Positions 446 through 62,012 of a stretch of DNA of 64,000 nucleotides are shown here, in pieces. Location of the stretch: assembly GCA_030390025.1 (NCBI GenBank), contig CM059447.1, forward strand, positions 26,226,001-26,290,000. The letters run 5' to 3'. The position numbers were made by a program, and so were the translations under genes. How positions within the stretch are numbered: position 1 is the first letter of the stretch; every line of letters begins with the position of its first letter. The notes beneath the pieces were generated by a model. The model had not been told where the DNA came from and ran no database searches. It saw nothing but the letters and a program-made list of their open reading frames with translations. Source of the stretch: Squalus acanthias. Taxonomy: Eukaryota.

Positions 446-35247
<34,802 letters not shown>

Positions 35248-40745: not shown

Positions 40746-41875
40746 AAACCCCAAATCAATGTTGTCTGGATTTGACTTTTGTTTAGGCTCCATCATTATA
40801 AACAGTAATTAAACTATACTTTGATTATAAATTAGAGACACTGTGCTCACAATTGAAGGGCTCTAATAATATTTTGTAGGTATTCATTTGCTAAAGTTAA
40901 ACACATGCCGATCTCCAAGCATGTTTGTGTAGAGCTGAATAATGCTGTTTTATTAGCGGTCATGTGGTATATGTGGTCACATTTAAGATACTGATTTCAT
41001 ATGATTTTATTGTCTAGTTTAACCTAATGCCTGAAAGTTACTGTGCTTTGTTCATTCTATGGCTCCTTGCAAAACATTTGATTACGGGGGGGGGCCCATT
41101 AGATACAAAGAAGGTGATATATGCTTAGAGGCGCAGGGCAAGGCTAGAATACTCAAAGTACTTTGTATCGGTGTTTACTAAGGAGGTGGATGCTGACAAA
41201 ATATCGGTAGAAGTGGAAAAGGTAGAAGCAATGGAAGGGGTGAAAATTGATAGACAGGATGTACTAGAAAGATTGGGTATGCTTAGAGTGGACAAGTCGC
41301 CTAGTCCAGATGGCTTGCATCCCAGGCTGCGAAGGGAATTGGGGGAGGAGATAGCGGAAGGGCTTGCCATAGTTTTCCAATCTTCCCTAGATGCGGGGGA
41401 GCTGCCTGAGGATTGGAAAGTGGCAAATGTGACACCATTGTTCAAGAAAGGGTGTAAGGACAATCTTAGTAACTACAGGCCGATCAGTTTAACATCAGTG
41501 GTGGGTAAAGTTTTAGAAACAATAATCAAGGAAAAAATTAATGGCCACTTGGAGAGGTTTAAGCTAATTAAGGAGAGCCAACACGGGTTTGTAAAAGGCA
41601 AATTGTGTTTGACGAATCCAATTGAATTTTTTGATGAAGGGAATGAAATGGATGTTGTCTACATGGATTTTTGGGAGGCGTTTGACAAAGTACCACATGG
41701 AAGGCTGGTTAACAAAATTGAGGCCCATGGAATAGGTGGGTCAGTGGCAGCTTGGATAAGGAATTGGCTTAAGGACAGAAAACAGAGAGTTGTGGTAAAT
41801 GGCTGTTCTTCAGACTGGAGGATGGTAGACAGTGGTGTTCCCCAAGGGTCAGTGCTGGGGCCACTGCTTTTTTTG

Positions 41876-41899
41876 ATATATATATATATATATATATAT
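41876..41899 (+). repeat. (AT)n microsatellite inside CR1 RT
   Basis: About 12 AT units expanding the LIYIND codons. Confidence 0.9.
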
Positions 41900-42242
41900 C
41901 AATGACCTGGATATTAGAATACAGAGTAGAATTTCTAAATTTACCAATGACACCAAACTTGGGGGTGTGGCAAACAGTGATGATACCAATCGACTGGAAC
42001 AGGACATAGAAAGGCTAACAGAATGGGCAGACAAGTGGCAGATGGAATTTAATACAGAAGTGTGAGGTGATGCATTTTGGCAGAAGGAACAGGGAGAGGC
42101 AATATACACTTAATGGCACAGTTTTAAAGAGTGTGCAGGGACAGAGGGACCTGGGAGTTAACGTGCATAGGTCCCTGAAGGTGGCGGGACATATTGAGAG
42201 TAGTTAACAAAGTATATGGGATCTTGGGCTTCATAAATAGAG

Positions 42243-43053
42243 TCATAGAGTTATACAGCACAGAAAGAGGCCCTTTGGCCCATTGTGTCTGCACCGGCCA
42301 TCAAGTCCTATCTATTCTAATCCCATTTTCCAGCACTTGGTCCGTAGCCTTGTATGCTATGGCGTTTCAAGTGCTCATCTAAATGCTTCTTGAATGTTGA
42401 GGGTTCCTGCCTCTACCACCCTTTCAGGCAGTGAGTTCCAGATTCCAACCACCCTCTGGGTGAAAAAGTTTTTCCTCAAATCCCCTCTAAACCTCCTGCC
42501 CCTTATCTTGAAACTATGCCCCCTGGTTATTGACCCCTCTACTAAGGGGAAAAGTTCCTTTCTATCTACCCTATCTATGCCCCTCATAATTTTGTACATC
42601 TCAATCAGGTCCCCCCCTCAGCCTTCTCTGCTCTAAGGAAAACAACCCCAGCCTGTCCAGTCTCTCTTCATAGCTGAAACGCTCCAGCCCAGGTAACATC
42701 CTGGTGAATCTCCTCTGCACCCTCTCTAATGCAATCACATCCTTCCTATAGTGTGGCGACCAGAACTGCACACAGTATTCCAGCTGTGGCCGAACTAGCG
42801 TTTTGTACAGCTCCATCATAACGTCCCTGCTCTTGCCTTCATTAGCCGAGGCATAGAATATAAGTATCCCATATGCCTTCTTAACCACTTTATCTACCTG
42901 TCCTGCTGCATTCAGGGATCTATGTACATGCACACCAAGGTCCCTCTGATCCTCTGTCCTTCCTAGGGTCCTACCATTCATTGTGTATTCCCTTGCCTTG
43001 TTAGTCCTCCCAAAATGCATTACCTCACACTTTTCAGGGTTAAATTCCATTTG
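42243..43053 (-). mobile_element. CR1 LINE 3' fragment nested antisense in another CR1
   Basis: ORF 42601-43050 MEFNPEKCEVMHFG...LVRPQLEYCVQFWSP...; 3' tail ...gctgtataactctatgactct at the left junction. Confidence 0.88.
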
Positions 43054-45402
43054 GTATTGAGGTATTGGGTATTGAGTACAAAAGTAGAGAAGTTATTCTG
43101 AACCTTTATAAAGTGCTGGTTGGGCCACAACTGGAGTATTGCGTCCAGTTCTGGTCAGCACACTTTAGGAAGGATGTGAAGGCCCTTGAGAGGGTGCAGA
43201 GGAGATTTACCAGAATGGTTCTGGGGATGGGGATCTTAGCAATAAGGACAGGTTGGAGAAGCTGGATTTGTTTTCATTAGAGCAAAGGAGGTTGAAGGGT
43301 GATTTGATAGAGGTGTACAAGATTATGACGGGTTTGGATAGGCTAGACGGTGAAAGGCTGTTCCCACTAGTTGATGGTACAAGGACTAGCGGGACACAGA
43401 TTTAAGGTTTTGGGCAAGAGATACTGGGGAAAACTTTTTTACGCAGCGAGTGGTGATGACCTCTAATTCGCTGCCGACGGAAGTGGTGGAAGCAGAGAGA
43501 CACAATATTTTCAAGGGGAGACTGGATAGGCACTTGAAGGAAATAAACTTGCAGGGCTACGGGGCTAGAGCGGGGGAATGGGACTGACTGGATTGCTCTA
43601 CAGAGAGCCGGCACGGACTCGATAGGCCGAATGGCTTCCTTCTGTGCTGTTATGACTCTATAGCTTTGTGAGTAATAAGCATTTGATCACATCCGCCATT
43701 ATTTACAGAAAGAGAAGCTTATGGTAACTAAATATTTGAAAGTATTTGATTTTAGTGCTTGGTTTCCAAATGACTTGTTGCTTAGTTAGATTAGTAGAAT
43801 AATCCAGATATTGTGCCGGTACTCTGAGAAATGCAATACTTTTTAGAGATCACTGAAGTTGTGCGAGTCCATCTTCAAGAAGTGCTATGTGAAACATTTG
43901 AACTACGTACTATTACAGATGAGCAGTCTGCTATGTAATCTGCTGCCATTCCAATGATTCTCTTGCTCAAATTGAGGTTAGAGGGAGTTGCCCCTGGAGT
44001 GCCCTTTACGCTTCCTAGTGCTTGATATTGCACGGCGCTGGGTGAGACCTGGGAGCAGGTTGGCATCTTTCAGGGGCAGGGCAGAGGAGGGAGAAAAACT
44101 CTGAGTACAAGATAACATCCTTCGTGAGTGGCTGATGGTGAATAGTGTCAAGAGTTGACCTAGTTCAATTCTGCGGCCATCAGCTTAAATCATTTTAGTT
44201 CTCATGTAGCTGAAATGGCCTTTAGGACTGGTTTTCACCCACGTGCCATTTTTCAATCCTCAAAGAAAAGTTAAAAGAAAAATTTCAGGAAAAAAATGGA
44301 TATAGAAATGTTAAAATGCACTATATTGGTGAAAAAAGTGGTTAAAATAATCAGAATGGGAGAAGGGAGACAGCAAGCAGAGTAAAATGTTTAAAATCTT
44401 TGTTTTTATTTAAGGTTGTTTTATTATTTGATTGTTTCAAAGTATTTTAGTTATATTTGGCAAATATTACAACAATCAAGCTAGGTTGTGAGCTGAAAGT
44501 TTTAATTACTAGCTGGCCCAAGAGACTGGAAATTCTCAGAGCTGTTGGTAGCCCAAGGTTTAATAGTAGCACAGGGCTAGTCGTCCTATATTTGACTTTC
44601 AGCATATCTGCCATTGGATTGACATGAATACAATGTTAAAAAGTAATTCTTGGGTATAACTAAAATCCAGATTTTGCATCATAAATTGAACTATAAACAC
44701 TAACACAGCACAGTCTCTGTATAAAGATAGCCTGATGAAAATAGAAATTTTTTGTGGCTTTGTGTTTTCTCGTATAAAGATCTTCCTTCCTCTACCATTT
44801 GTCGCTCTTAAAAGGTTGTCTTGCACCTGCACCTTTTCATATCTCTGTCATATTTGAAGTTTATGGTCTAGGTAAACCTCACCCTTTATGTCTTGCATTT
44901 CTATTAGTTTCTGTTTTAAAGTTGTTTTCTCCCTCTCGCTCAATCAAGGAAATGGCCACTTGAAAGGAAGGACTCTACCAGGGCCACTCTGGCAGAAACA
45001 ACTAACTTGGATTTATGTTATGTTCCAAATGCTTCACGTTCAATGAATTACTGAGGTGTAGTTATTGTAGGCTCATGGCAAGGTCCCATTAACAGCCATC
45101 AGCTGAATGACCAGTTGATCTGTTTATGGTGGGTTTTGTTGAATATTGGCCAGGATACTGTTAGCACACCCTGCTCCTCTTCAACTAGTCTCAATGGGTT
45201 CTTTAACTTCCACTTGAATGAGCAGATAGTGTCTGACAAGTTGTTCAACTGTGGGTGCCATTACAGTCTGTTCTTGCCTCCTTTTCCTGAAGTATTTCCA
45301 AATCTATATTAAAATCACAACAGGTACACAGAAAGGTGGAAGCACACCTGGCTTCCTCTTAACACCTCTTCCTCCCACCAGTATCAGAGGCTTCGAATGT
45401 GA

Positions 45403-47968
45403 GTCTCTCTCTTAGGCAGTCCCTCGGAACCGAGGATGACTTGCTTCCACATTAAAAATGAGTTCGCAGGTGACTGATGAGTCCAATGCGGGACCTACAG
45501 TCTCTGTCACAGGTGGGGCAGACGGTGGTTGAAGGGGCGGGTGGGTGGGGTGCTTGAGTTGACGTGCGCTGCTTGCGCTGTTTGCGCTTGGCTTCCGCTT
45601 GCTCCCGGCGAAGAGACTCGGTGTTTGGCGCCTTCCTGGATGCTTCTCCTCCACTTTGTGCGGTCTTGGGCCAGGGGTTCCCAGGTGTCGGTGGGGATGT
45701 TGCACTTTTTCAAGGAGGCTTTGAGGGTGTCCTTGAAGCGTTTCCTCTGCCCACCTGGGGCTCTCTTGCCGTGCTGGAGCTCCGAGTAGAGCACTTGTTT
45801 TGGGAGTCTCGTATCGGGCATGCGGACAATGTGACCCGTCCATTGGAGCTGATCGAGCGTGGTCAAAGCTTCGATGCTGGGGATGTTGGCCTGAGCAAGA
45901 ACACGGACGTTGGTGCGCCTATCCTGCCAATGGATTTGCAGGATCTTGCGGAGGCAGCATTGGTGGACCTCAAAGCACTGGAGAGGTACCATGTCTCTGA
46001 GGCATACAGCAGGGCGGGTATCACTGCTGCTCTGTAGACCATGAGCTTAGTGCCGGGTTTGAGGTCCTGGTCTTCAAACACTCTCTTCCTCAGGCGACCG
46101 AAGGCTGCACTGGCACACTGAAGGCGGTGTTGGACTTCGTCGTCGACGTCTGCCCTTGTTGACGGTAGGCTCCCGAGGTATGGAAAGTGGTCCACGTTGT
46201 CCAAGGCCTTGTCGTGGATTTTGATAATCGGGGGGCAGTACTGTGTGGCGGGGGCAGGTTGGTAGAGGACCTTTGTCTTACGGATGTTTAGTGTAAGGCC
46301 CATGCTCTCGTATGCTTCGGTGAAGATGTTGACGATGGTTTGGAGTTCGACCTCCGAGTGAGCGCAGACGCAAGCGTCGTCTGCATACTGTAATTCGACG
46401 ACAGAGGATGGGACGACCTTGGATCTGGACTGGAGGCAACGGAGGTTGAACAGTTTCCCATTTGTTCTGTAAATTAGCTCCACTCCAGCGGGGAGCTTAC
46501 TGAGGGTGAGATGGAGCATTGCAGCAAGGAAGAGCGTTGGTGCGATGACACAGCCTTGCTTGGCCCCGGTTCGTATGTGAATTGGGTCTGTGGTGGATCC
46601 GTTGGTCAGGATCACGGCTTGCATGTCGTCGTGAAGCAGGCGGAGGATGGTGACAAACTTTTGAGGGCAGCCGAATTTGAGGAGGACACTCCATAATCCC
46701 TCACGGTTGACAGTGTCGAAGGCCTTTGTGAGATCAAAGAAGGCCATGTACAGCGGTTGGTGCTGTTCCCTGCATTTCTCTTGTAATTGACGTGCAGTGA
46801 AGTTCATGTCCATTGTGACCCTTAGTGGGCGGAATCCGCATTGTGACTCTGGGAGGAGCTCTTCGGCCACTGGGAGAAGGCGATTGAGGAGGATTCTTGC
46901 GATGACTTTCCCTGTGGCAGACAGCAGGGAAACTCCTCTGTAATCACCGCAATCAGACTTGTCACCTTTCTTGAAGATTGTCACAATTACGGCGTCTCTG
47001 AAATCCCCTGGCATGCTCTACTCCTTCCAGATAAGAGAAATGAATTCGTGCCAATAGTGCTTCTCCGCTATGCTTTAGTGCCTCGGCAGGGATTCCATCT
47101 GCTCCTGAGGCCTTGTTCTTCAGTTGTCGGATGGCCTTTTCAACCTCATGCCGGGCTGGGGTTGTGCTGAGATGGTGGCAGGTAGCATGCTGCGGGATGG
47201 AGTTGAGGACACTCGCATCGAAGACAGTCGCGGTTAAGGAGATCTTCGAAGTGCTCCTTCCAGTGGGCACTGACTGCCTCTCCATCCTTGATGAGTACCT
47301 CTCCGTTCTTGGCCCGCAGTGGGGTAGGACCTTGGGTGCTTGGGCCGTAGGTGGTCCTGACTGTGCTAAAGAATCCATGCATGTCGTGGTTGTCAGCGAG
47401 CTGCTGGATCTCCTGTGCTTTCTCCACCCACCACCTGTTCTTTAGGTCGCGAGTTTTTTGTTGGACCTTGGCCTTCAGGTGTCTGTAGAGCTGCTTTCTT
47501 GCTGTCGAGTTCTGTTGCTGTTTCCAGATCAGGAATGCCTTGCGCTTGCGGCTTATTAGCTCCTGGTCGTTCTCGTCGAACCAGTCTTGGTGTTTCCTGG
47601 TCGAGTGACCGAGCGTCTCTTCACAGGTGTTGATTATGGAGGCCTTGAGTGCAGACCAGGCGCTGTGGACACTCTGTGTCTCTGCATCACTGGGAGTCGT
47701 CAGGTTGTTTGAGGCGCAGGCTGAATAGGGCTTTCTTAGCAGGGTCTTTGAGTGCTCCAGCATTGATTTTCCTGCGGCATTGTTTCTGTTGCCGCCGCTG
47801 TTTTGGGGCTACATTGATGGAGATGACAGAACGGATTAGGCGGTGGTCTGTCCAGCAGTCGTCAGCTCCTGTCATGGCGCGGGTGATGCGGACGTCCTTG
47901 CAGTCCCTTGCTCGGACGATGACGTAGTCCAGCAGATGCCAGTGCTTAGAGCGAGGGTGCTGCCATGA
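45403..47968 (-). mobile_element. RTE-clade (BovB-like) LINE, 5'-truncated, frameshifted
   Basis: APE C-terminal motifs (WQHPRSKHWHLLDYV, CWTDHRL); RT motifs FKKGDKSDCGDYRGVSLL, ESQCGFR, FFDLTKAFD, KQGCVIAP, LQYADD; RTE C-terminus GHIVRMPDTRLPKQVLY; GC/CpG-rich. Confidence 0.92.
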
Positions 47969-49592: not shown

Positions 49593-51482
49593 CTTTCTCT
49601 CTTTCTTGCCTCTGCTGGTTTGATTTTAGACAATCCTATTGTTCTTTGTCCTCAAATCTAATTTAATTTTCCTCATAGCCTTTTATATTCTTTAACTAAT
49701 TATCCAGGAACTTTTTTTGCCATTGTAATTGATGCTAGTATTGAACACCACTTGCGGCAAACCACTTGTGCTCAACTATTCTTGAGATCTTGCTGTTTAG
49801 CTTAGATCCTAACTTCTCGCACTCCCTCAGCACGATCTCTCCTGTATTCTTTCTTATGTCGTTGGTTCCCACATGAACTACGACTTCTGGCTGATCATCC
49901 TCCATCTCCACTCCATTATGTCCCTTACCCTAGCACCTAGGAGGCAATATCTATTCGGGATTGCAGGTCAGACCTGCAGAAATGGCTATTGATCCCTCTA
50001 AATCCATGATGCCATGTTATTGCTTATGTGTACATTGTGATATAATACCCTATTATTATAAAACAGCATATCCCATATGACTCATTGTGACCAAGGCCAT
50101 GTAATACAGCATATGTTTTGTCCATCACACTTTGGCATCAGACCTGTGTGTGCAAATATCTGCAATTACATATACAGGAGCAACAAATCACAACTGAAGA
50201 GCTAGGGCATGTGTAAATCATACAAGAGGAAGTACACACACACTCTTACTAAAATGCTGCTGCTTAGAATTATTGTAAATCCTCAAACATTTTTATCAAA
50301 GAGGCTTATTCAATGTGGAGCATTTGGCTGGAGCCTAACTTATTGGGTTGGCCTTTACTGCCATAGAAAGGGGAATTGGGTGGTCAGGACTTGAGTGCAA
50401 AAAGGATCAAGGGAACAGGAAGAAGTAGGTCTCATGGATGAGGTGAGCTTGGATAGGGCAAGAGCAAAATGGCTGCAGACAGACAGGAATTCAGAGCTAG
50501 AGGGGCTGGGTGGAAGGGAACAGGAAGGGCAGTGGAGGCAGGAATAGCCTTGATCTCAGTGTTGAATAAATCTCTGAGCGCCTTACATTTTGTGTTTGAG
50601 GTGATGGTGGAGGAGCTGGTTTAAGGAGGTAGTTGGTCATAGATTAAAAAAAAGGAACCATCAGGATGATCTTTTAGAATAGGTGGTTTGGGCTGAGCAG
50701 AGCTTGACGTGATCATGCCAGATCTGTCAATGAATGGCTAGGCCAGTTGCGTATGCTTGTGTTTACAACCCTCACAGTTGGGAAAGAAATGGCAGGGGTC
50801 ACAGACTCGCTTTGCAGAGAACAAGGGTGTCAAGGATAGTCGTAAGACCGCAATTAAGGCAGTCTCCCACAGTGGAGAGATAATGGTGACACGGTAGAGG
50901 ATTTAGGACATTGAGAGTGAGGTTGTAAGGATCCCAGGGACAGCTATTTCCAGGAATAGATGGTGAAAGCTGTGTAATTGTACCAGGGTACAGGGATGTG
51001 GATGTTAGTAGAGATGAGGAAATGGTCAGAGATAGACTTGTCTAACACTGAGACCACAGGGAAGAAGTTGACATAAGGCATGGCAGAGGGGTATGGTAAA
51101 AGGAAATATTAAATAAAAAGGGTAAAGTGCTTAGAGGATTAGGGGCAAAGGCCAAGATGTGATTTGGGGATAATGGTCATGCCACCATGGTAATGGTTTG
51201 GGCAGGGGCAGTAGTAAAGCTATAGCCTAGCAGGGAAGCTACTGTGAGGGGAAAGGAGTTGCTGCCCATGTGCCCATCTGTTAGTGCCAAGATGAGGTTT
51301 CACAGACACATAGTGAGGCAAATACAGAGGGGGTCTGTGACAAAATAACAGTGCAAGAAGTATGAACAATGGGCAGAGATTGAAGAGGTTGACCCAAGGA
51401 GTCTAAGATGATCAGCGAAAGTGGAGAATGGGGCAGTTAGGTAATTGCTTACAGGAGAGAAGGTTTGTAAAATGGAAAGAAA

Positions 51483-52227
51483 CTGCAAAGTGCTACAGTA
51501 CAAAGGGATCTGGGGGTCCTGGTGCATGAAACACAGAAGGTTAGTATGCAGGTACAGCAGGTGATCAGGAAGGCCAATGGAATCTTGGCTTTTATTGCAA
51601 GGGGGATGGAGTATAAAAGCAGGGAAGTCTTACTTCAGTTATACAAGGTACTGGTGAGGCCACACCTGGAATACTGCGTACAGTTTTGGTTTCCATATTT
51701 AAGAAAATATATACTTGCTCTCGAGGCAGTTCAGAGAAGGTTCACTCGGTTGATTCCGGAGATGAGGGGGTTGACTTATGAGGAAACGTTGAGTAGGTTG
51801 GGCCTCTACTCATTGGCATTCAGAAGCATGAGAGGCGATCTTATCGAAACATAAAAGATTGTGAGGGGGCTTGATCGGGTGGAAGCGGGGAGGATGTTTC
51901 CACTGATGGGTGAGACTTGAACTAGGGGGCATAATCTTAGAATAAGGGGCTGCCGTTTCAAAACTGAGATGAGGAGAAACTTCTTCACTCAGAGGGTAGT
52001 AAATCTATGGAATTTGCTACCTCAGAGAGCTGTGGAAGCTGCGACATTAAATAAATTTAAAACAGAGATAGACAGTTTCCTAGCTGATAAGGGAATTAAG
52101 GGTTATGGGGAGCGGGCAGGGAAGTGGACGTGAGTCTAGGTTCAGATCAGCCATGATCCTATTGAATGGTGGAGTAGGCCCGAGGGCCCATATGGCCTAC
52201 TCCTGCTCCTACTACTTATGTTATGTT
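51483..52227 (+). mobile_element. CR1 LINE 3' fragment
   Basis: ORF 51522-51854 KANGILAFIARGMEYKSREVLLQLYKVLVRPHLEYCVQFW; tail ggcctactcctgctcct...ttatgttatgtt. Confidence 0.9.
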
Positions 52228-53652
52228 AAGTAGTGATAGATTGGGATCAGAGCAGGTAGCATACCTGAGGGAGGAGAATGGTGCCATGATCAGCTTTGGG
52301 TTAATGGAGACAGGAGAGCATGCCTCAGAAGGAAGATATTACTGAGTTCGGTTCTCGAGTTAGTCAAAATACACACACGAAAGGCACAAGAGAGTCAGTT
52401 TTTTTTATATTAACATTAAAAATGTCACCAGGATTTGAACACTAGTCAGCAGAACTCTGCAGTCAGTCCAATGTAGCCAGCAGTATAACTGTGCTCTGAA
52501 CTTGCACTGTTCTCACAGTAGTTGCAGCTTTCAAATGGTACCTATAATGTAACATCAGAGAGACTAAGAATGACTAGTGCAAGGCAGAAGGGAATGTTCT
52601 CGCAAAGAGCCAGGACAGCACGATGGGCTGAATGGTCTCTACCTGTACTGTAAGCTATGATGGTTCTGTAGCGAGAATGCATTTACAACTTCACTAAGTA
52701 GCAAAGAAAATATTCCCCTGTTGTTGGTGCTGAATACTCTGCATCTGTCCATAGGATCTGTGACTCCTTTGTGAAACATTCATTTGATGATGCCAAATCC
52801 ATTTCAAGGGGAATTAATCCCAAATTCTTTGAGGGGGCCATAGATTCCATTTTGGTACAATTGTGTTTCTACCACACATTGGAGATGGATGACCAGTTAA
52901 TTGTTTTCTGGGAGTGTTGCCTGAGAGAAATGTTGGTCATGACACACAACTCTTCAAATAATGCCATCAGATTTTTTTTTTTTTTTTTTTTTTTAAAACA
53001 TTGCTCCTGTTGAAAGGAGGCTTTGTTTTAATGTCTCAACCAAAAAACTGCACCTCCAACATGCAGCACTCAGTATTGTACTAGATTATGTCTGCAACTG
53101 TGAAGTGGAGCTTGAAACCACAACCTACTGAATGTTTCTAGGTTTTAACACAAGAGGGTTGGAAATGCAAAGAACACATGTTCACATGAAGTAAGACTTT
53201 GCACTCCCATCACTCCTTAGTACCCTGAATGCATTTACATGGATAACACACAAACTATAAGTTAGTGACAAACATGGTTCACAATTAAGCAACAATAAGC
53301 TGCCAGGCAGGGTAGTAGAGACACAGACTCAGCTAGAGAACGAGAATACTAGAGGGATGAGCTTCGGTGGGCCAAAAGTCCATTTCTTGTACTTTACTTT
53401 GCTCACGTTCTTAACTTCTGTTATTAAAAGAATCTCCAAATGTTTATAGAAAGCTGCTGTGACATCAACAAACGTGTGTCCATTCAAATTCAGTGTGCTA
53501 TGGATACCAGAATCTACAAGATGTCAATTGGAATCTTCTGTTATGAAGTCACTGTTATCAGTTAAAAGGAACCATTTGTTTCAACTATTCACTGTTTAGT
53601 TTCAAATATACTGAGCTTAGTGAATTGAACACAAGATAGAAGCAACTTACAA

Positions 53653-54645
53653 ATGAAAATGGAAGCTAACTTAGGAACCTGTAGGAAGAACATGGGGCTT
53701 TTGTCTGGAATGGGAGCTGCTTATTTACTGTACAAACCAATCAACATAAGCACAAACACTGAAGACCAGGACAGAAGAACGTCTAGTAACGAACATAGCT
53801 CATGTGTTGAAGCGGGGACTGGTAACTCTCACATGATTCAGGCTGATGCATCAGGATTTACTATCACCAGCAGCTGCGATGACATGGATGCACAACACTT
53901 GCGTAGGCTTTTGGCTGTTCTTAAGCAAAATCCCAATCCTACCCTGAAAGCACTCATTGGAACAAGTATTTGTAGATTGGCTGCATTTTCTGCTAATCAC
54001 GAATTAATTCGTTCACAAGGTGGGATCAGCATCATTGTAGAATCACTGAATGATCCTCTGACCGAGATAAAAGTAGACACTTTAAATGCTCTTAACTTCC
54101 TTTCTAACAATGTCACAAATCGAGAACTAATCCAGGAATATGTTCATCAAGTCCGTGAGCTGGTCAGCACAGCCATTTTAGACTCTGAATTACAGTTAGC
54201 TGCTTTAAGGCTGCTCAGTAACTTGCTGCACTACCATCAAAACCAGCTCAAGATGAAAAGGTCCATCCCGGAATTTTTTGAACTGTTGCAGAAAGGGTCA
54301 GCCCAAACTAAGGCCCAAGTATTAAAAATTTTCATCAATCTGTCAACAAACTTAGAGCTCACATTTGATATTCTGAACACCCGAGTTCCACCATCCTTCT
54401 TTTCATTGTTTAATACCTGCATACCACCAGATATTCTAAAGGGTCATCTGACATTTGTGGCTAATTTAAATGAAATCAGGAGAAGTCCACATTATGAATC
54501 TGCTCAGCATGAATACAATGAGGAGTCCCTCTTTGCACTGTTATTTGGAGGCTCACAATTTTCAAATAAACTCTTTTCTTTAATGACACACCCAGACAAT
54601 GGGGTGTTCATACTGACTACTAAGATCCTATCAAAATTACGGTGA
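53653..54645 (+). CDS. Intronless ARMC10/ARMCX-like armadillo-repeat protein (330 aa), probable retrogene
   Basis: Uninterrupted ORF with in-frame TGA upstream (53626). N-terminal hydrophobic GLLSGMGAAYLLYK resembles the ARMC10 anchor GLLLGAGACYCIYR. Arm_2-type motifs AAFSANHELIRSQGGI, LNALNFLSNN, QLAALRLLSNL, TKAQVLKIFINLSTN and EESLFALL appear in ARMC10 order. ATTAAA at 54687, AATAAA at 55028. Confidence 0.85.
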   Translation: MKMEANLGTCRKNMGLLSGMGAAYLLYKPINISTNTEDQDRRTSSNEHSSCVEAGTGNSHMIQADASGFTITSSCDDMDAQHLRRLLAVLKQNPNPTLKALIGTSICRLAAFSANHELIRSQGGISIIVESLNDPLTEIKVDTLNALNFLSNNVTNRELIQEYVHQVRELVSTAILDSELQLAALRLLSNLLHYHQNQLKMKRSIPEFFELLQKGSAQTKAQVLKIFINLSTNLELTFDILNTRVPPSFFSLFNTCIPPDILKGHLTFVANLNEIRRSPHYESAQHEYNEESLFALLFGGSQFSNKLFSLMTHPDNGVFILTTKILSKLR

Positions 54646-56869
54646 ATTACTTGCAAGTTACAGTTAGATAATATTTAATAGAATTAATTAAAAATTCTTT
54701 GATTTCAAGAGCAGTTTAAGCCACAGTAACTGGTTCAAAGGTTTGTGTGTAAGTATGAAGTATTTTAATTCTATGGACATTATTCCTTACAATGATAATT
54801 CTTAGTGAAAATATAAGATCATAAATTATATGCAGAAGCACGTGAGCTTTCACAAGGGTGAAAGACCCGGCATAATGTGACTGATAGAATCTTGAACTAG
54901 TTCTTGTACTTTCTGGAGCCTGTCACAGGAAACAAGCTGTTAAGTGGTAACTCCAGTTAATTTAATTCCCCAACAACTTAAACTATTAGCATCTGCACTA
55001 ACAATTACATTAGTAGATAATGCCACAAATAAAGGTGATTGGTATCTGCTTCACAACACGGTCTTCTCATTCTTTTAACCACTCAACAGTTCAAGTTATA
55101 ATTCATTGTAAAGCTGAACTCAGCGTGAACAAAGATCATTTGCCATCGCAGAGAACGTCACTTTATAAAATAACAGCACTGTTGATACACTATTTAAAAA
55201 AAATTGAATAGAGATCATACTTCACATACTTTATATGGGGTGGAAGAGAATTACTGCGACAGGGTTTCTCCAGTTTTATACTGAAGTTTAGTAATGTGCC
55301 TTACTGCACAAAAACCCCACCCTCTTATTCTTTTCAATCCAAACACTCTAGTGTAAGGCACACCCCAACTGTTCCAATTAAAATTTGCAAAAACACTCCA
55401 TATATCAGTTAAAATAGTGGGAGTGGAGGGTAGGAGTGAAGAATGTGGAGAATAAAATACATTAACCATGCTAATATTAGATTATCATATTCATCCTCCC
55501 TTCATAATCCTTTAGATGATACTTTCACATAATGGCCTATCAAGAGGTCAAGGCAGCAAGACCATCTTTGTAAGCCAGTTCAGACAATCATTGTCTACAC
55601 CTAAAACTGTTGGTCTGTCTCTTTTTACAGATGCTGATGCACCTACTGTGAAGTTCCAGCATTTTCAGTTATTATTTCTTGAATTTTCATAACTGAGCAC
55701 AGCCTGCTCTGTTTGCAAAGATTAATGGAACGAGTACATTCAAAAGACAGCTAGGTTCCTGCTAAGCCTGCTCCAAAGCACTTTTTACTTTGAACTAAGC
55801 TTTTGAACTTTATTTTTCCTAAATTTGACAATCTTGTGACTTCAAAAGTGTTGACTCTAGTCCTCCTCAAAAATACTGAAAGGAGTTGACAGTCATTGCA
55901 GGGAGTCAGAGAGGAGAGGCTGCTTCTTATTACCCTGTTCATTTCCTGTTCTCCAGCTTTCAATGATAATTTGTATTGGCTTTCTATTTTTATAGCTAAA
56001 GAAAACCAGTTGGAGCTGTTGTCTTAGTTATTGACCTTTTGTTTCCACCACACAAAGTATTGCAGTGAGCTCCATCTTTCATGTGCTACACTTTTGTGAT
56101 CCCACAGGAAATTGAACTGTGCAATATTAGTGCACAACAATGGCAGCTGGTGATCTTTTTAGTAGGTGAGGCACACGTTAAGCATGCCTACTAGCCAAGC
56201 CAGCTTGTCACTGACAATGGGCCCTTTGCACATGCGCAGTGTCTTTGAACGCACGCCCCAGTCACTGAAGTTGAAAAGGGTTAAAAAAAAATCTGAAGAA
56301 TGGAGTTTTGCAAATGCTCATTCGGCTGCAAGTTGCAGTTTTGCACATGGAACATTCCAAAACACAACTTTTTTCCCCTCGCTTGATGAGTTGCCTCTGG
56401 CTTAACATGTTCATATGGAATTCCTTTGTCCACTACTTTAAATGAGGTGTTATCCCATTTACTTCAAAATTTAAGCAGGTAAAAATTTCACACAAATGTG
56501 CTAAGTGTTGTTCTGCCATTATCACAGCGCAATTTCACTTCATGACATTTATTTAATTGGTTGCTATTTTGACAAACATCCAACCGTAAAACTGTTCTAC
56601 ATCCTATGAAAGAAATAAATTAATGTAAGAATATACAGCATTAAAATTGTAACTTAAAATGTTTAATAATCCATTTCAGTAAACAAATACAAATAAACAA
56701 TATCTGCAGTATTGCCATTAAGCATGTGCATGAGATTTTTTACATTCTAGCAAATGCTATCTAATTATTAAAGTCCACAGCATTGTTTTGGCTGGTCTAC
56801 ACTGGTACAATTTAAGAGTATAAATCTTAAGAATGCCTATTATGCCCAACAACTACTTCCAGTTGATAG

Positions 56870-57555
56870 CTGTGGTCTTCCAAATGTTAAACAGGACAAA
56901 GTTAAAACTCATCCAAGACTGGATGGAAGACAAGCAGTCTGACAGCACAGAGGCAGTCGGATTGAGAGAGAGGTAGAGCTGGGTGTCATCAGCGTATGTG
57001 TGGTTAGCTGACCCTGCTTTGATGGATGAGGTCATCGAGGGGCAGTATGTAGATGAGAAGAGCAAGAGCCCAATATTATATTCTTGGAGGTCCCTGTAGG
57101 TGACGGTGAAGGAGTGAAGATGATCTGGCTACATTTGGAAAAGTATGAGCGAAACCATGTCAGGGCAGGCCCAAAGAGCTAGACAACACAGGACAGATGT
57201 TGGAGAAGGATAGTGTGGCCCACTGTTTCGAGGACTGTACAGAGGTCAAGGAAGGATAAAGCACCACGGAGAACGCCATTAACGCTTTTGTCAGTGCTCT
57301 TCTGGTGCTCTGAGATAGACAGAAGCCAGACTGGAGGGATTTAAAGAATTACAGGCAAGATGGGCAGAGAGTCAGGAGGTGACAACATATTCAAGGACCT
57401 TGAGGGAAGAGAGAGGTTGGTGATACGGCAATAATTGGCAAGGATGAAAAAGTTGAGGATATTTTTATATAAGGGTGCGATAGTGACACTTTTAAAGGGG
57501 AAGAGGGATGGTATCTGAGAAACAAAACCATCAACTTTGCCAGCTAGCATAGGGG
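56870..57555 (-). mobile_element. Degenerate L2-type LINE RT fragment
   Basis: YADDTQLYLS...LSDCLSSIQSWM and ANYCRITNL remnants on the minus strand. Confidence 0.75.
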
Positions 57556-59864
57556 CTTGATGAAGAAATACACAAGCTCCTTGCACTTGGTGTTTGAGGA
57601 AAGGTGAAGGGGGGCAGGGGAAGAGGATTTTGAGGAGGAAAAAAAATGAGCCTGGGGTTATCCTTGCCCTCCAGGCTAACTGGCTGGTTTTAGCTGAGGA
57701 AGGTGAAGCACAATAGCACTTGCCATGGTCACTCAAGATCTGGTAATGGATGGCTAGGGACATTCAGACTTAAGCAAGAAAACATGGACAGCTTGAAAAT
57801 TTTACATTTAGACATGGAAATCTCCCATTTCAGATACTTGTAGTTCCTGCAGATGACATGCAGGAACCAGAACAAAAGACTATTGCTATATGATTTCCTG
57901 ACATTTAACCAGAAATTATAAATTTTACACAAACTAAGTTTTTTTGGCATCTACAGGATTAAAAACTATTGCAAAACTTGTACACAGTTCAAATTTTATA
58001 CAAAAATTAACAGTTCCTGTAAGCAGATGGTTTACAATTCAGAAGCTGTATATTTCTGTCTTCATACATACAGATGTATACCCAAGGAGATAACACTTGC
58101 AGCAATCTGCTTACTTGATTTAATTTCTCATGTTACACTAGCAGACGCTCTGAAATAGTAGATATTGCCACATAGACCAGAGATTTACAAACTTAAAGTA
58201 AATTTAGTTTAAACAGTATATAAAATGCACAAAAAATTGCAAATACTAAAATTACTATACACATGCATACAAGACTGTACACAATGAACCATTTATCTTT
58301 GGGTGGAGTATAAAATTCTTGGTCACTTACATGGTGAATACAGTTGATTTCTTCTCATAACAGTTTCTGAAACAGCAAATCATATTTTAAATGCATCATT
58401 CAAACACAAAAGAGTGTCTTCCATCTGACCAATACACCATCAAAATAACCTCACCCTTGTTTCAGACTCCAGCACTGAACCTCCAAAGTGTTCAGAGCTA
58501 CACTCCACTACCTGCTTTTTTCAGCAAACGTGACAATACTACATATTCATATGTACAATTAAATGCATTGTACAAGTGTGGAACTAGAAAAATTCTAAAA
58601 CAAATTAACAGAACATCAAAAACCTGCATCAGTTTGTGTCCCCAATCTAGCACTGATGTTTGTCTGCTACCTTTTTGCTCCCATGTACTATAAACAACGT
58701 TGTACCATGATAAAAGAGCATTTTAAAATAAAGTGTTCACTTTGCAACAAGATTGTGGTGTTTTGGAATATTTACTACACTAATCAATGTCCCGTAGCGT
58801 TGTTCACAATTAACAAGACGGTGTGCGCTGTTTGGCTGAGAGAGATTACAGCACTAACTCTTTAGCAAGCAAGAACAGGAGTTCTTGTCATTTTTTTTAA
58901 GAGGTAACAGCACCATCCTCTGGAAGAAATAAGAATAGCAGGTATTTACCATTATTACATTACCCATTGATTCAAAAATAAACTAGAATTTTATATATAT
59001 CTAGTAATGGATCTCCCATGCGTTGTTTATGGTAAGTTGGAGGGTAGGCTGGATAGGAAGTGGATTCAAAAGGGAAGTACTTGTGGTTTAGGCAAAGAGG
59101 GAAAGGGAAAGTTATTAGAATTTTAATAGATACATAGATAAGTTTAAGTAGAGTGTATTTATAAATATATAAAAGAACCACCAAAGAGCTGGGGAAACAA
59201 TTGGGAGAAAATGAGGCAAAATGTTGAGGGGGGGTTAAGCAATGGGGTAGCAAATGAGAAAAAAAAGAGCCAAGAAGAGACAGGGGAGTGGCCATCAGTT
59301 GGGACAGCAAATGGAAAAGAAAGGCTAAGAGCTGAGGTTGCAGTTAAGGTGCAAATCCAAAGAAACAAAAGAGCCAAAAAGGGGAAGAGTTAAGGTAGCA
59401 ATGGGGGAAGAAAAAAGGGGGTAGTCAAGAGATGGGCATCTCAGTTTATCACTGTCTCACAGCTGTAAGTATTTAACATGTTTTCTATTTTCTATCAACA
59501 AAATACAGATGATAATTAAAACTTCTGTTTTCTTTCAAAATTGAACTCATTTGTTTTTAGAAAGCATGTTAAGTGATTTGTGAGGAAAACTATTACTGTC
59601 ACCTAGTGGCAATAAAGTTACTTTGTTGTTTAACACTGGCATTACCAGATCATATTTTTGGATATTTTCACAGGCTTAGCATCACCAGCAACTCCCATCT
59701 GCAGATCTTACATCTCTTGCGATCCGCAGTGTACTTTTATCTGCCCAATATCTAGGTAAACGATAGTGAGACCCAGAGACCACACCAGAGAACTCATACT
59801 CTGTCAGCTACTGGAACACATCACATGTCGCTGTGGTTCTTCTCTCTTGGAAAACCAGACTGAA

Positions 59865-61924: not shown

Positions 61925-62012
61925 TTAGACACTGAGTGGCAGCATGCCTGGTGGTGAAGAAGGTGGCGCTGATCCAATTCGAGCAGGTCCTTGGTCTAGA
62001 CCATTTACTGCC
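61925..62012 (-). CDS. NDEL1: NDEL1 terminal coding exon (rest of gene beyond window end)
   Basis: Minus strand tttttttgttgaatatag|G GCA GTA AAT...GTC TAA = (G)AVNGLDQGPARIGSAPPSSPPGMLPLSV*, matching the NDEL1 C-terminus GAVNG...PGMLPLSV; tail-to-tail with MYH10 as in mammals. Confidence 0.92.

Follow-up and report, generated by a model that had tools for sequence, protein, structure and literature searches.

A single-exon armadillo gene, copy A, lies in the window, as we call the whole 64,000-nt stretch of dogfish DNA that was analyzed, and it very probably belongs to the ARMC12 lineage. On balance, we favor the reading that copy A is an orphan retrogene of this lineage, likely older than the split between sharks and chimaeras, whose product is probably a peripheral armadillo adaptor on spermatid mitochondria. 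The dogfish genome carries a second such copy, copy B, on contig C25, which the initial annotation of this DNA overlooked.

Results

A single-exon gene between MYH10 and an NDEL1-like gene

Copy A is a single open frame of 993 nt (330 codons plus a stop) on contig C24, and frames like it are expected by chance about 7e-5 times in 64 kb. Because five of the seven named A orthologues have their N-terminal methionine at the second ATG (53659), whose context (A at −3, G at +4) is stronger than that of the first, translation probably starts there. The features discussed below are as follows, in window coordinates.

35056..35247, + strand: open frame with the last MYH10 coding exon, left neighbor, on the same strand and ~18 kb upstream of copy A
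53653..54645, + strand: single-exon coding sequence of copy A, very probably an ARMC12-lineage protein; probable start at the second ATG, 53659 (328 aa)
53689..53733, + strand: residues 13-27, an uncharged N-terminal stretch with homology to the N-terminal helix of ARMC12 and ARMC10
53734..53880, + strand: variable linker, approximately residues 28-76, of low model confidence
53887..54543, + strand: Arm_2 (PF04826) domain, a predicted armadillo solenoid, from a Pfam match and a structural model
55028..55033, + strand: nearest AATAAA 3' of the copy A stop, a candidate poly(A) signal (the motif is common in the window)
61928..62011, − strand: terminal coding exon of the right neighbor, an NDEL1-like gene tail to tail with copy A

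The upstream gene is MYH10 (its best PDB match is myosin-10, and its last exon ends at ~35247), and the downstream gene is NDEL1-like, with a NUDE_C exon and NDEL1 as its only PDB match; going by the human protein, we take 61928-62011 to be the usual last exon of NDEL1. These matches confirm the placement between MYH10 and NDEL1 given in the initial annotation, whose description of an uninterrupted 993-nt frame in repeat-littered DNA with broken LINEs also holds. Repeat copies flank copy A on both sides (51458-52232 and 56866-57444). LINE fragments resembling reverse transcriptase, which fall into at least two kinds (26123-27076, 41098-43665, 45404-47763 and 51458-52232), lie in MYH10 introns and in intergenic DNA, and every one is a partial ORF. 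On the minus strand at 58780-58925, 3 kb past the NDEL1 terminal exon, there is a strong polypyrimidine acceptor with a short frame and AT-rich DNA after it; this is a possible alternative last exon of NDEL1, ~4 kb from the copy A stop. No CpG-island promoter was found near copy A (CpG observed/expected 0.2-0.3 at 52-55 kb).

The Pfam Arm_2 profile (PF04826) matches residues 79-297 of copy A with E=9.6e-50. An AlphaFold2 model built from an 18-row alignment (mean pLDDT 75) predicts a helical solenoid confidently over the C-terminal two thirds, with pLDDT mostly 85-96 from residue 121 on and helices reaching residue 329; residues 1-76 are modeled with low confidence. A fold search with this model returned generic armadillo repeat matches (TM ~0.5-0.6), and a PDB sequence search with copy A returned no solved relative, the best match being ARMC4 at E=2e-4. 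The initial annotation had described an Arm_2 domain colinear with ARMC10; domain and colinearity are borne out, but the lineage is very probably that of ARMC12. At the position of the human disease residue C229 of ARMC12, copy A has Thr.

Residues 13-27 are less hydrophobic than the corresponding helix of ARMC12 and ARMC10, and what comes after them is Lys-Pro, not a basic helix. The best 15-residue Kyte-Doolittle mean in this N-terminus, 1.03, is the lowest among 21 family proteins (the others range from 1.06 to 2.51, with copy B, ARMC12, ARMC10 and ARMCX at 1.55-2.51), and a net positive flank is absent. Because of this low hydropathy and the missing basic flank, the N-terminal hydrophobic 'anchor' reported earlier is an overstatement, although the segment itself is present.

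Family members in the dogfish and in other species

Genome searches with five queries (the window protein, the Arm_2 profile, a sturgeon ARMC12-like protein, copy B and opossum ARMC12) returned three loci below E 1: copy A on C24, copy B on C25 and a set of exons on contig C10. Two additional matches from one of these searches, at E >1.7, were ignored. Copy B is a second single ORF of 324 aa (C25:14019774-14020748, + strand) that is 44-46% identical to copy A, has an AATAAA within 60 nt after its stop, and is well conserved across sharks, rays and chimaera. It sits between an alpha/beta-hydrolase gene and one that is GIT-like (the GIT1_C match is weak and under the cut-off, and a kinase lead is also weak), in a neighborhood whose genes are presumably TAOK1, ABHD15, TP53I13 and GIT1. 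The exons on C10 (C10:110653020-110672206) form an ARMC10 gene of six coding exons with GT-AG junctions and 338 aa, which groups with named shark ARMC10 in our tree; an LHFPL-family gene is 0.7 Mb away. Human ARMC10 is reported to have seven exons, so that one linker exon differs. The initial annotation had allowed that the gene in the window might simply be ARMC10; the multi-exon ARMC10 is in fact a separate gene, present on C10.

Orthologues of copy A elsewhere, which the same annotation had suggested seeking, occur among annotated proteins: named A-type proteins come from six sharks and from the chimaera Callorhinchus, and named B-type ones from sharks, three rays and Callorhinchus. A profile of eight A rows, used in a word-limited search of annotated proteins with 8000 scored candidates, returned 16 proteins (seven A-type, six B-type and three ARMC10), none of them an A-type protein from rays, carpet sharks or catsharks. 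Among the named cartilaginous-fish proteins there was no third type. Their database names are mostly 'ARMC10-like', with one 'ARMC12-like' and one 'ARMCX1-like', and the chimaera B protein is called 'ARMC12'. Copy A is 91-94% identical to the horn shark and sawshark proteins and has a full-length chimaera orthologue. Two of the seven named A orthologue models are odd, with a 31-aa skip in Carcharodon and an unrelated C-terminus in Heptranchias. Mean column identity is 89% for B (11 rows) versus 78% for A (8 rows).

Several features of these relatives stood out. Callorhinchus copy A has a Gly/Asp-rich linker and a Pro/His insertion, with a letter make-up unlike that of the family. Sturgeons and paddlefish retain an ARMC12-like protein that is apparently spliced, and there was no teleost ARMC12 among the representatives named. 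In squamate-type ARMC12-like proteins the C-terminus bears long Ser/Thr/His-rich repeats, and more than one ARMC12-like type apparently exists in geckos.

Copy A groups with ARMC12

In a maximum likelihood tree (LG+C20 PMSF, 52 rows, 321 columns), the A clade (100/99) and the B clade (100/100) are sisters (99/94), and the node that unites them with ARMC12 of sturgeon, paddlefish, frog, reptiles, duck and mammals has support of 100/100; ARMCX is nested in mammalian ARMC10, as published. AU tests reject a grouping of shark ARMC10 with A and B jointly (p=1.2e-4) or with A alone (p=1e-93). A pruned 29-row tree, which leaves out B, ARMCX, invertebrates, chimaera A and four long ARMC12 rows and whose root is misplaced, still puts A with ARMC12 at 100/99. 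Further, two partitions of the ARM region (residues 76-161 and 162-330) give the same split with SH-aLRT of 95 and 100. A chimeric ARMC10/ARMC12 origin of copy A is rejected, as both partitions agree. The initial annotation had made copy A an ARMC10 retrocopy; that parentage does not survive the 100/100 grouping and the AU tests (p<=1.2e-4), and the proposed convergence with ARMCX falls with it.

Pairwise comparisons add to this picture. Copy A is the best genome match of the opossum and sturgeon ARMC12 queries, and its residues 8-32 share 14/25 identities with opossum ARMC12 versus 9/25 with shark ARMC10. As DNA, copies A and B align at 65% over 373 nt, and neither coding region aligns with the C10 gene. 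By raw score, copy A matches fish ARMC10 at 188-163 bits versus 119 bits for mammalian ARMC12, and its diagnostic columns agree with ARMC10 in 18 cases and with ARMC12 in 9, 12 of the 18 being outgroup states as well; we read this pattern as a slowly evolving ARM core in copy A and fast evolution of ARMC12 in bony vertebrates. The sister relationship of A and B is only moderately firm: an alternative has AU p=0.04, and the C-terminal partition does not resolve it.

Intron loss, relocation and an absent parent

Human ARMC12 is described as having six exons (PMC13062846). Protein isoforms of bony-vertebrate ARMC12 break at the aligned columns of introns 2-5 of the C10 ARMC10 gene: the break is at intron 2 in a frog isoform and at introns 2 and 3 in mammal-type isoforms, a squamate-like protein skips exon 4, and both another squamate-like protein and a sturgeon protein skip the 24-aa exon 5. 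Because these breaks fall at ARMC10 intron sites, ancestral ARMC12 was spliced. Copies A and B run through all of the sites in genomic DNA, and the five coding introns are absent from both.

Human ARMC12 is placed next to FKBP5, with CLPS beyond (bioRxiv 746610), and copies A and B both lie away from the colipase and FKBP5-like genes that correspond to these flanks. The dogfish colipase gene is at C17:11.42 Mb, beside an LHFPL gene, and an FKBP4/5-type gene is at C17:45.6 Mb; PDB matches do not separate FKBP5 from FKBP4, and we infer from the contig and the long introns that this gene is FKBP5. The two genes, close together in human, are thus 34 Mb apart on C17, with a breakpoint at the old ARMC12 position. 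The stretches fetched from this breakpoint region are repeat-rich (56-75% repeated).

No spliced ARMC12 was found in the genome-wide searches with the five queries, which scored the best candidates in an assembly that may be incomplete. Scans with profile HMMs of ARMC12, A and B over 200 kb around colipase and 360 kb around the FKBP gene (the latter including one 500-N stretch) likewise gave no exon match at E<0.6, and the same profiles recovered 4-6 of the 6 exons of the more distant ARMC10. A segmental DNA duplication linking A and B was rejected, as the two share no flanks, only short repeat-like matches. Because both copies have chimaera orthologues, the copying events likely predate the shark-chimaera split.

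Intron loss, relocation and an absent parent are together the marks of an orphan retrogene as described in PMC4772013 and PMC3548309, and we consider it probable that A and B are two orphan retrogenes, of retro-origin and with their parent lost. In this scheme, the ancestral ARMC12, with its five coding introns, would have been transcribed in the germ line, and on the stem of the cartilaginous fishes it would have been retrocopied either two times or a single time with a later re-copying; the spliced parent would have been lost afterwards, its former neighbors now lying 34 Mb apart. The initial annotation had proposed an old retrogene at a new locus in the cartilaginous lineage, and its retro-origin and age are borne out, while ARMC10 was the wrong parent.

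Constraint on copy A

Compared with run X5 over the ARM region, copy A shows 16 synonymous and 9 non-synonymous differences (pN/pS 0.18-0.23, p<=4e-4), these being the 25 differences listed of 34 counted in the two X5 contigs. Runs X6, X7 and X9 come from closer relatives; a single contig without a joint covers the ORF in X6 and in X9. X6 carries a 2-nt deletion at codon 308, before which the ratio of synonymous to non-synonymous changes is 6:10 (pN/pS 0.51-0.67, not significant; two rows after the deletion and four flank rows are left out of the count). X7 contigs break at 54548-54604. The single indel in X9 is an in-frame 3-nt insertion, and among the 12 X9 changes listed (up to 53965; 23 more rows exist) the ratio is 4:8 (pN/pS 0.58-0.75, not significant).

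Selection on copy A, which the initial annotation had asserted, is therefore clear in the X5 comparison, but the X6 counts and the listed X9 counts do not reach significance, and the annotation's statement that no stop or frameshift occurs is true of the dogfish ORF but not of X6, with two of the seven orthologue models odd as well. From these comparisons, copy A looks old and selected but dispensable in some lineages, and it is less constrained than copy B.

Four putative RNA runs gave patchy contigs with a depth of ~3-6 over parts of the ORF and similarly low cover outside it; a silent control was absent. No splice joint into the copy A ORF was seen in these runs, which we weigh neither for nor against expression.

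Discussion

Because copy A groups with ARMC12, the analogy with Miro/Trak neuronal transport yields to the spermatid role of ARMC12. Mouse ARMC12 is described as testis-enriched from the round-spermatid stage, as a salt-extractable peripheral outer-membrane protein that is partly cytosolic, and as a binding partner of VDAC2/3, MIC60, GK2 and TBC1D21; its N-terminus clusters mitochondria, and the protein is required for the mitochondrial sheath and male fertility (PMC8017931). In catshark sperm, the midpiece is reported to bear mitochondria over its full length (PMC8532847). By analogy, we lean slightly toward a role of the shark copies on spermatid mitochondria, in which the ARM solenoid would bind outer-membrane partners of the VDAC2/3 and TBC1D15/21 type and help to pack midpiece mitochondria. 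The N-terminus is best kept in copy B, with 17/26 identities to rat ARMC12, and copy A is weakened in the N-terminus that mouse ARMC12 needs for mitochondrial clustering. Copy B would likely be the main ARMC12 replacement, and copy A a more dispensable accessory.

A different fate for copy A within the same lineage, namely a changed role as a soluble or partner-recruited ARM protein that does not tether mitochondria and is perhaps not restricted to testis, seems unlikely. It would account for an N-terminal hydropathy lower than in any other of the 21 proteins and for the Pro after the segment, for the ancestral, ARMC10-like states retained in the ARM core and for an A/B identity of only 44-46%, and old retrogenes are described as tending toward broader expression (PMC4772013). 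However, the segment is still recognizable and shares 14/25 identities with opossum ARMC12, and low hydropathy does not have to prevent targeting, given that the mouse protein is also salt-extractable and in part cytosolic. We regard it as improbable that copy A was once functional and is now decaying, its frame intact mainly through slow sequence evolution in sharks. The late frameshift and near-neutral pN/pS in X6, the X7 contig break in the same region, the odd models in two of seven orthologues and the lack of any returned for rays, carpet sharks or catsharks are all in keeping with decay; against it stand the pN/pS of 0.18-0.23 versus X5, the 91-94% identity to horn shark and sawshark and the full-length chimaera orthologue, and the X6 and X9 counts are small and compatible with constraint.

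The two remaining explanations concern origin. ARMC12 might have recombined with its own cDNA, shedding its introns at the original locus, and then been moved or duplicated as DNA to two new sites; neither a poly(A) tail nor a target-site duplication is to be expected at such an age, and rearrangement has broken the old locus, but the flanks of A and B share nothing beyond short repeat-like matches, the neighbors differ at both sites and all five coding introns are gone from both copies, so that this route is very unlikely. Less probable still, and in our view largely refuted, is an independent ARMC10 retrocopy convergent with eutherian ARMCX and pulled toward ARMC12 by long branches. ARMC10 proteins are indeed the best raw matches outside cartilaginous fish, a spliced ARMC10 is present on C10, and 'ARMC10-like' is the commonest database name. 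Yet the placement with ARMC12 recurs in site-mixture trees, in pruned trees and in both partitions, AU tests reject the alternative, copy A is not a long branch, and A and B align with each other as DNA (65%, 373 nt), which neither coding region does with C10.

The reading of A and B as ARMC12-lineage orphan retrogenes has several consequences. Shark, ray and chimaera proteins now mostly called 'ARMC10-like' would be reassigned to ARMC12, a human male-infertility gene, and the ARMC10/ARMC12 split would move back to at least the jawed-vertebrate ancestor. The pair would also be a rare and very old double orphan retrogene, and the Arm_2 family would have undergone RNA-based duplication a second time, from the other parent. 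With its ancestral ARM core and its apparent loss or damage in some lineages, copy A offers a natural test of what midpiece assembly needs from ARMC12. A bolder proposal, which we hold only tentatively and think doubtful, is that all cartilaginous fishes run ARMC12 function on two dispersed retrogenes whose parent was lost >400 million years ago, with B clustering mitochondria, A acting as an anchor-weakened partner, and loss of A by lineage tracking midpiece shape. If such a division of labor were true, the packing of sperm mitochondria by ARMC12 would date to the first jawed vertebrates.

Our literature search returned no paper on the shark A and B genes, whose proteins are present in databases. 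PMC8017931 gives reptiles, marsupials and mammals as the only groups with ARMC12. ARMC10 is treated as single-copy and ARMCX as eutherian retrocopies in PMC5424104, and ARMC10, ARMC12, ARMCX and GPRASP are grouped in bioRxiv 2025.04.02.646874; the portions of these two papers considered here do not mention sharks. An intron-free TSSK1-like gene is described in a cartilaginous fish (PMC6905558).

Among known systems, copy A most resembles ARMC12 (C6orf81), with which it shares a clade (100/100), a layout of N-terminal helix, linker and Arm_2 solenoid, and motifs such as DILN and RSPHY. It differs in having one coding exon instead of six, another locus and two copies, and in its weaker N-terminal segment, more ancestral ARM-core states and lack of a C-terminal tail. 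ARMC10/SVH is a colinear member of the same Arm_2 family, 36-37% identical to copy A in shark and lungfish, but in the dogfish it is the six-exon C10 gene, unlike single-exon copy A. The ARMCX1-6/GPRASP genes likewise have a single coding exon, an Arm_2 domain and an RNA-based origin, which for the shark copies we infer; the shark copies would differ in having ARMC12 and not ARMC10 as parent, in the apparent loss of that parent and in being far older, and they lie on two contigs, as opposed to the eutherian X-linked tandem cluster. Orphan retrogenes (PMC4772013, PMC3548309) and the teleost hatching enzyme (PMC6385490), as these sources describe them, show the same intron loss, relocation and absent parent, from which the shark case differs in its two coexisting copies, its cartilaginous-fish host and its spermatid gene. 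Copies A and B are no new kind of mechanism.
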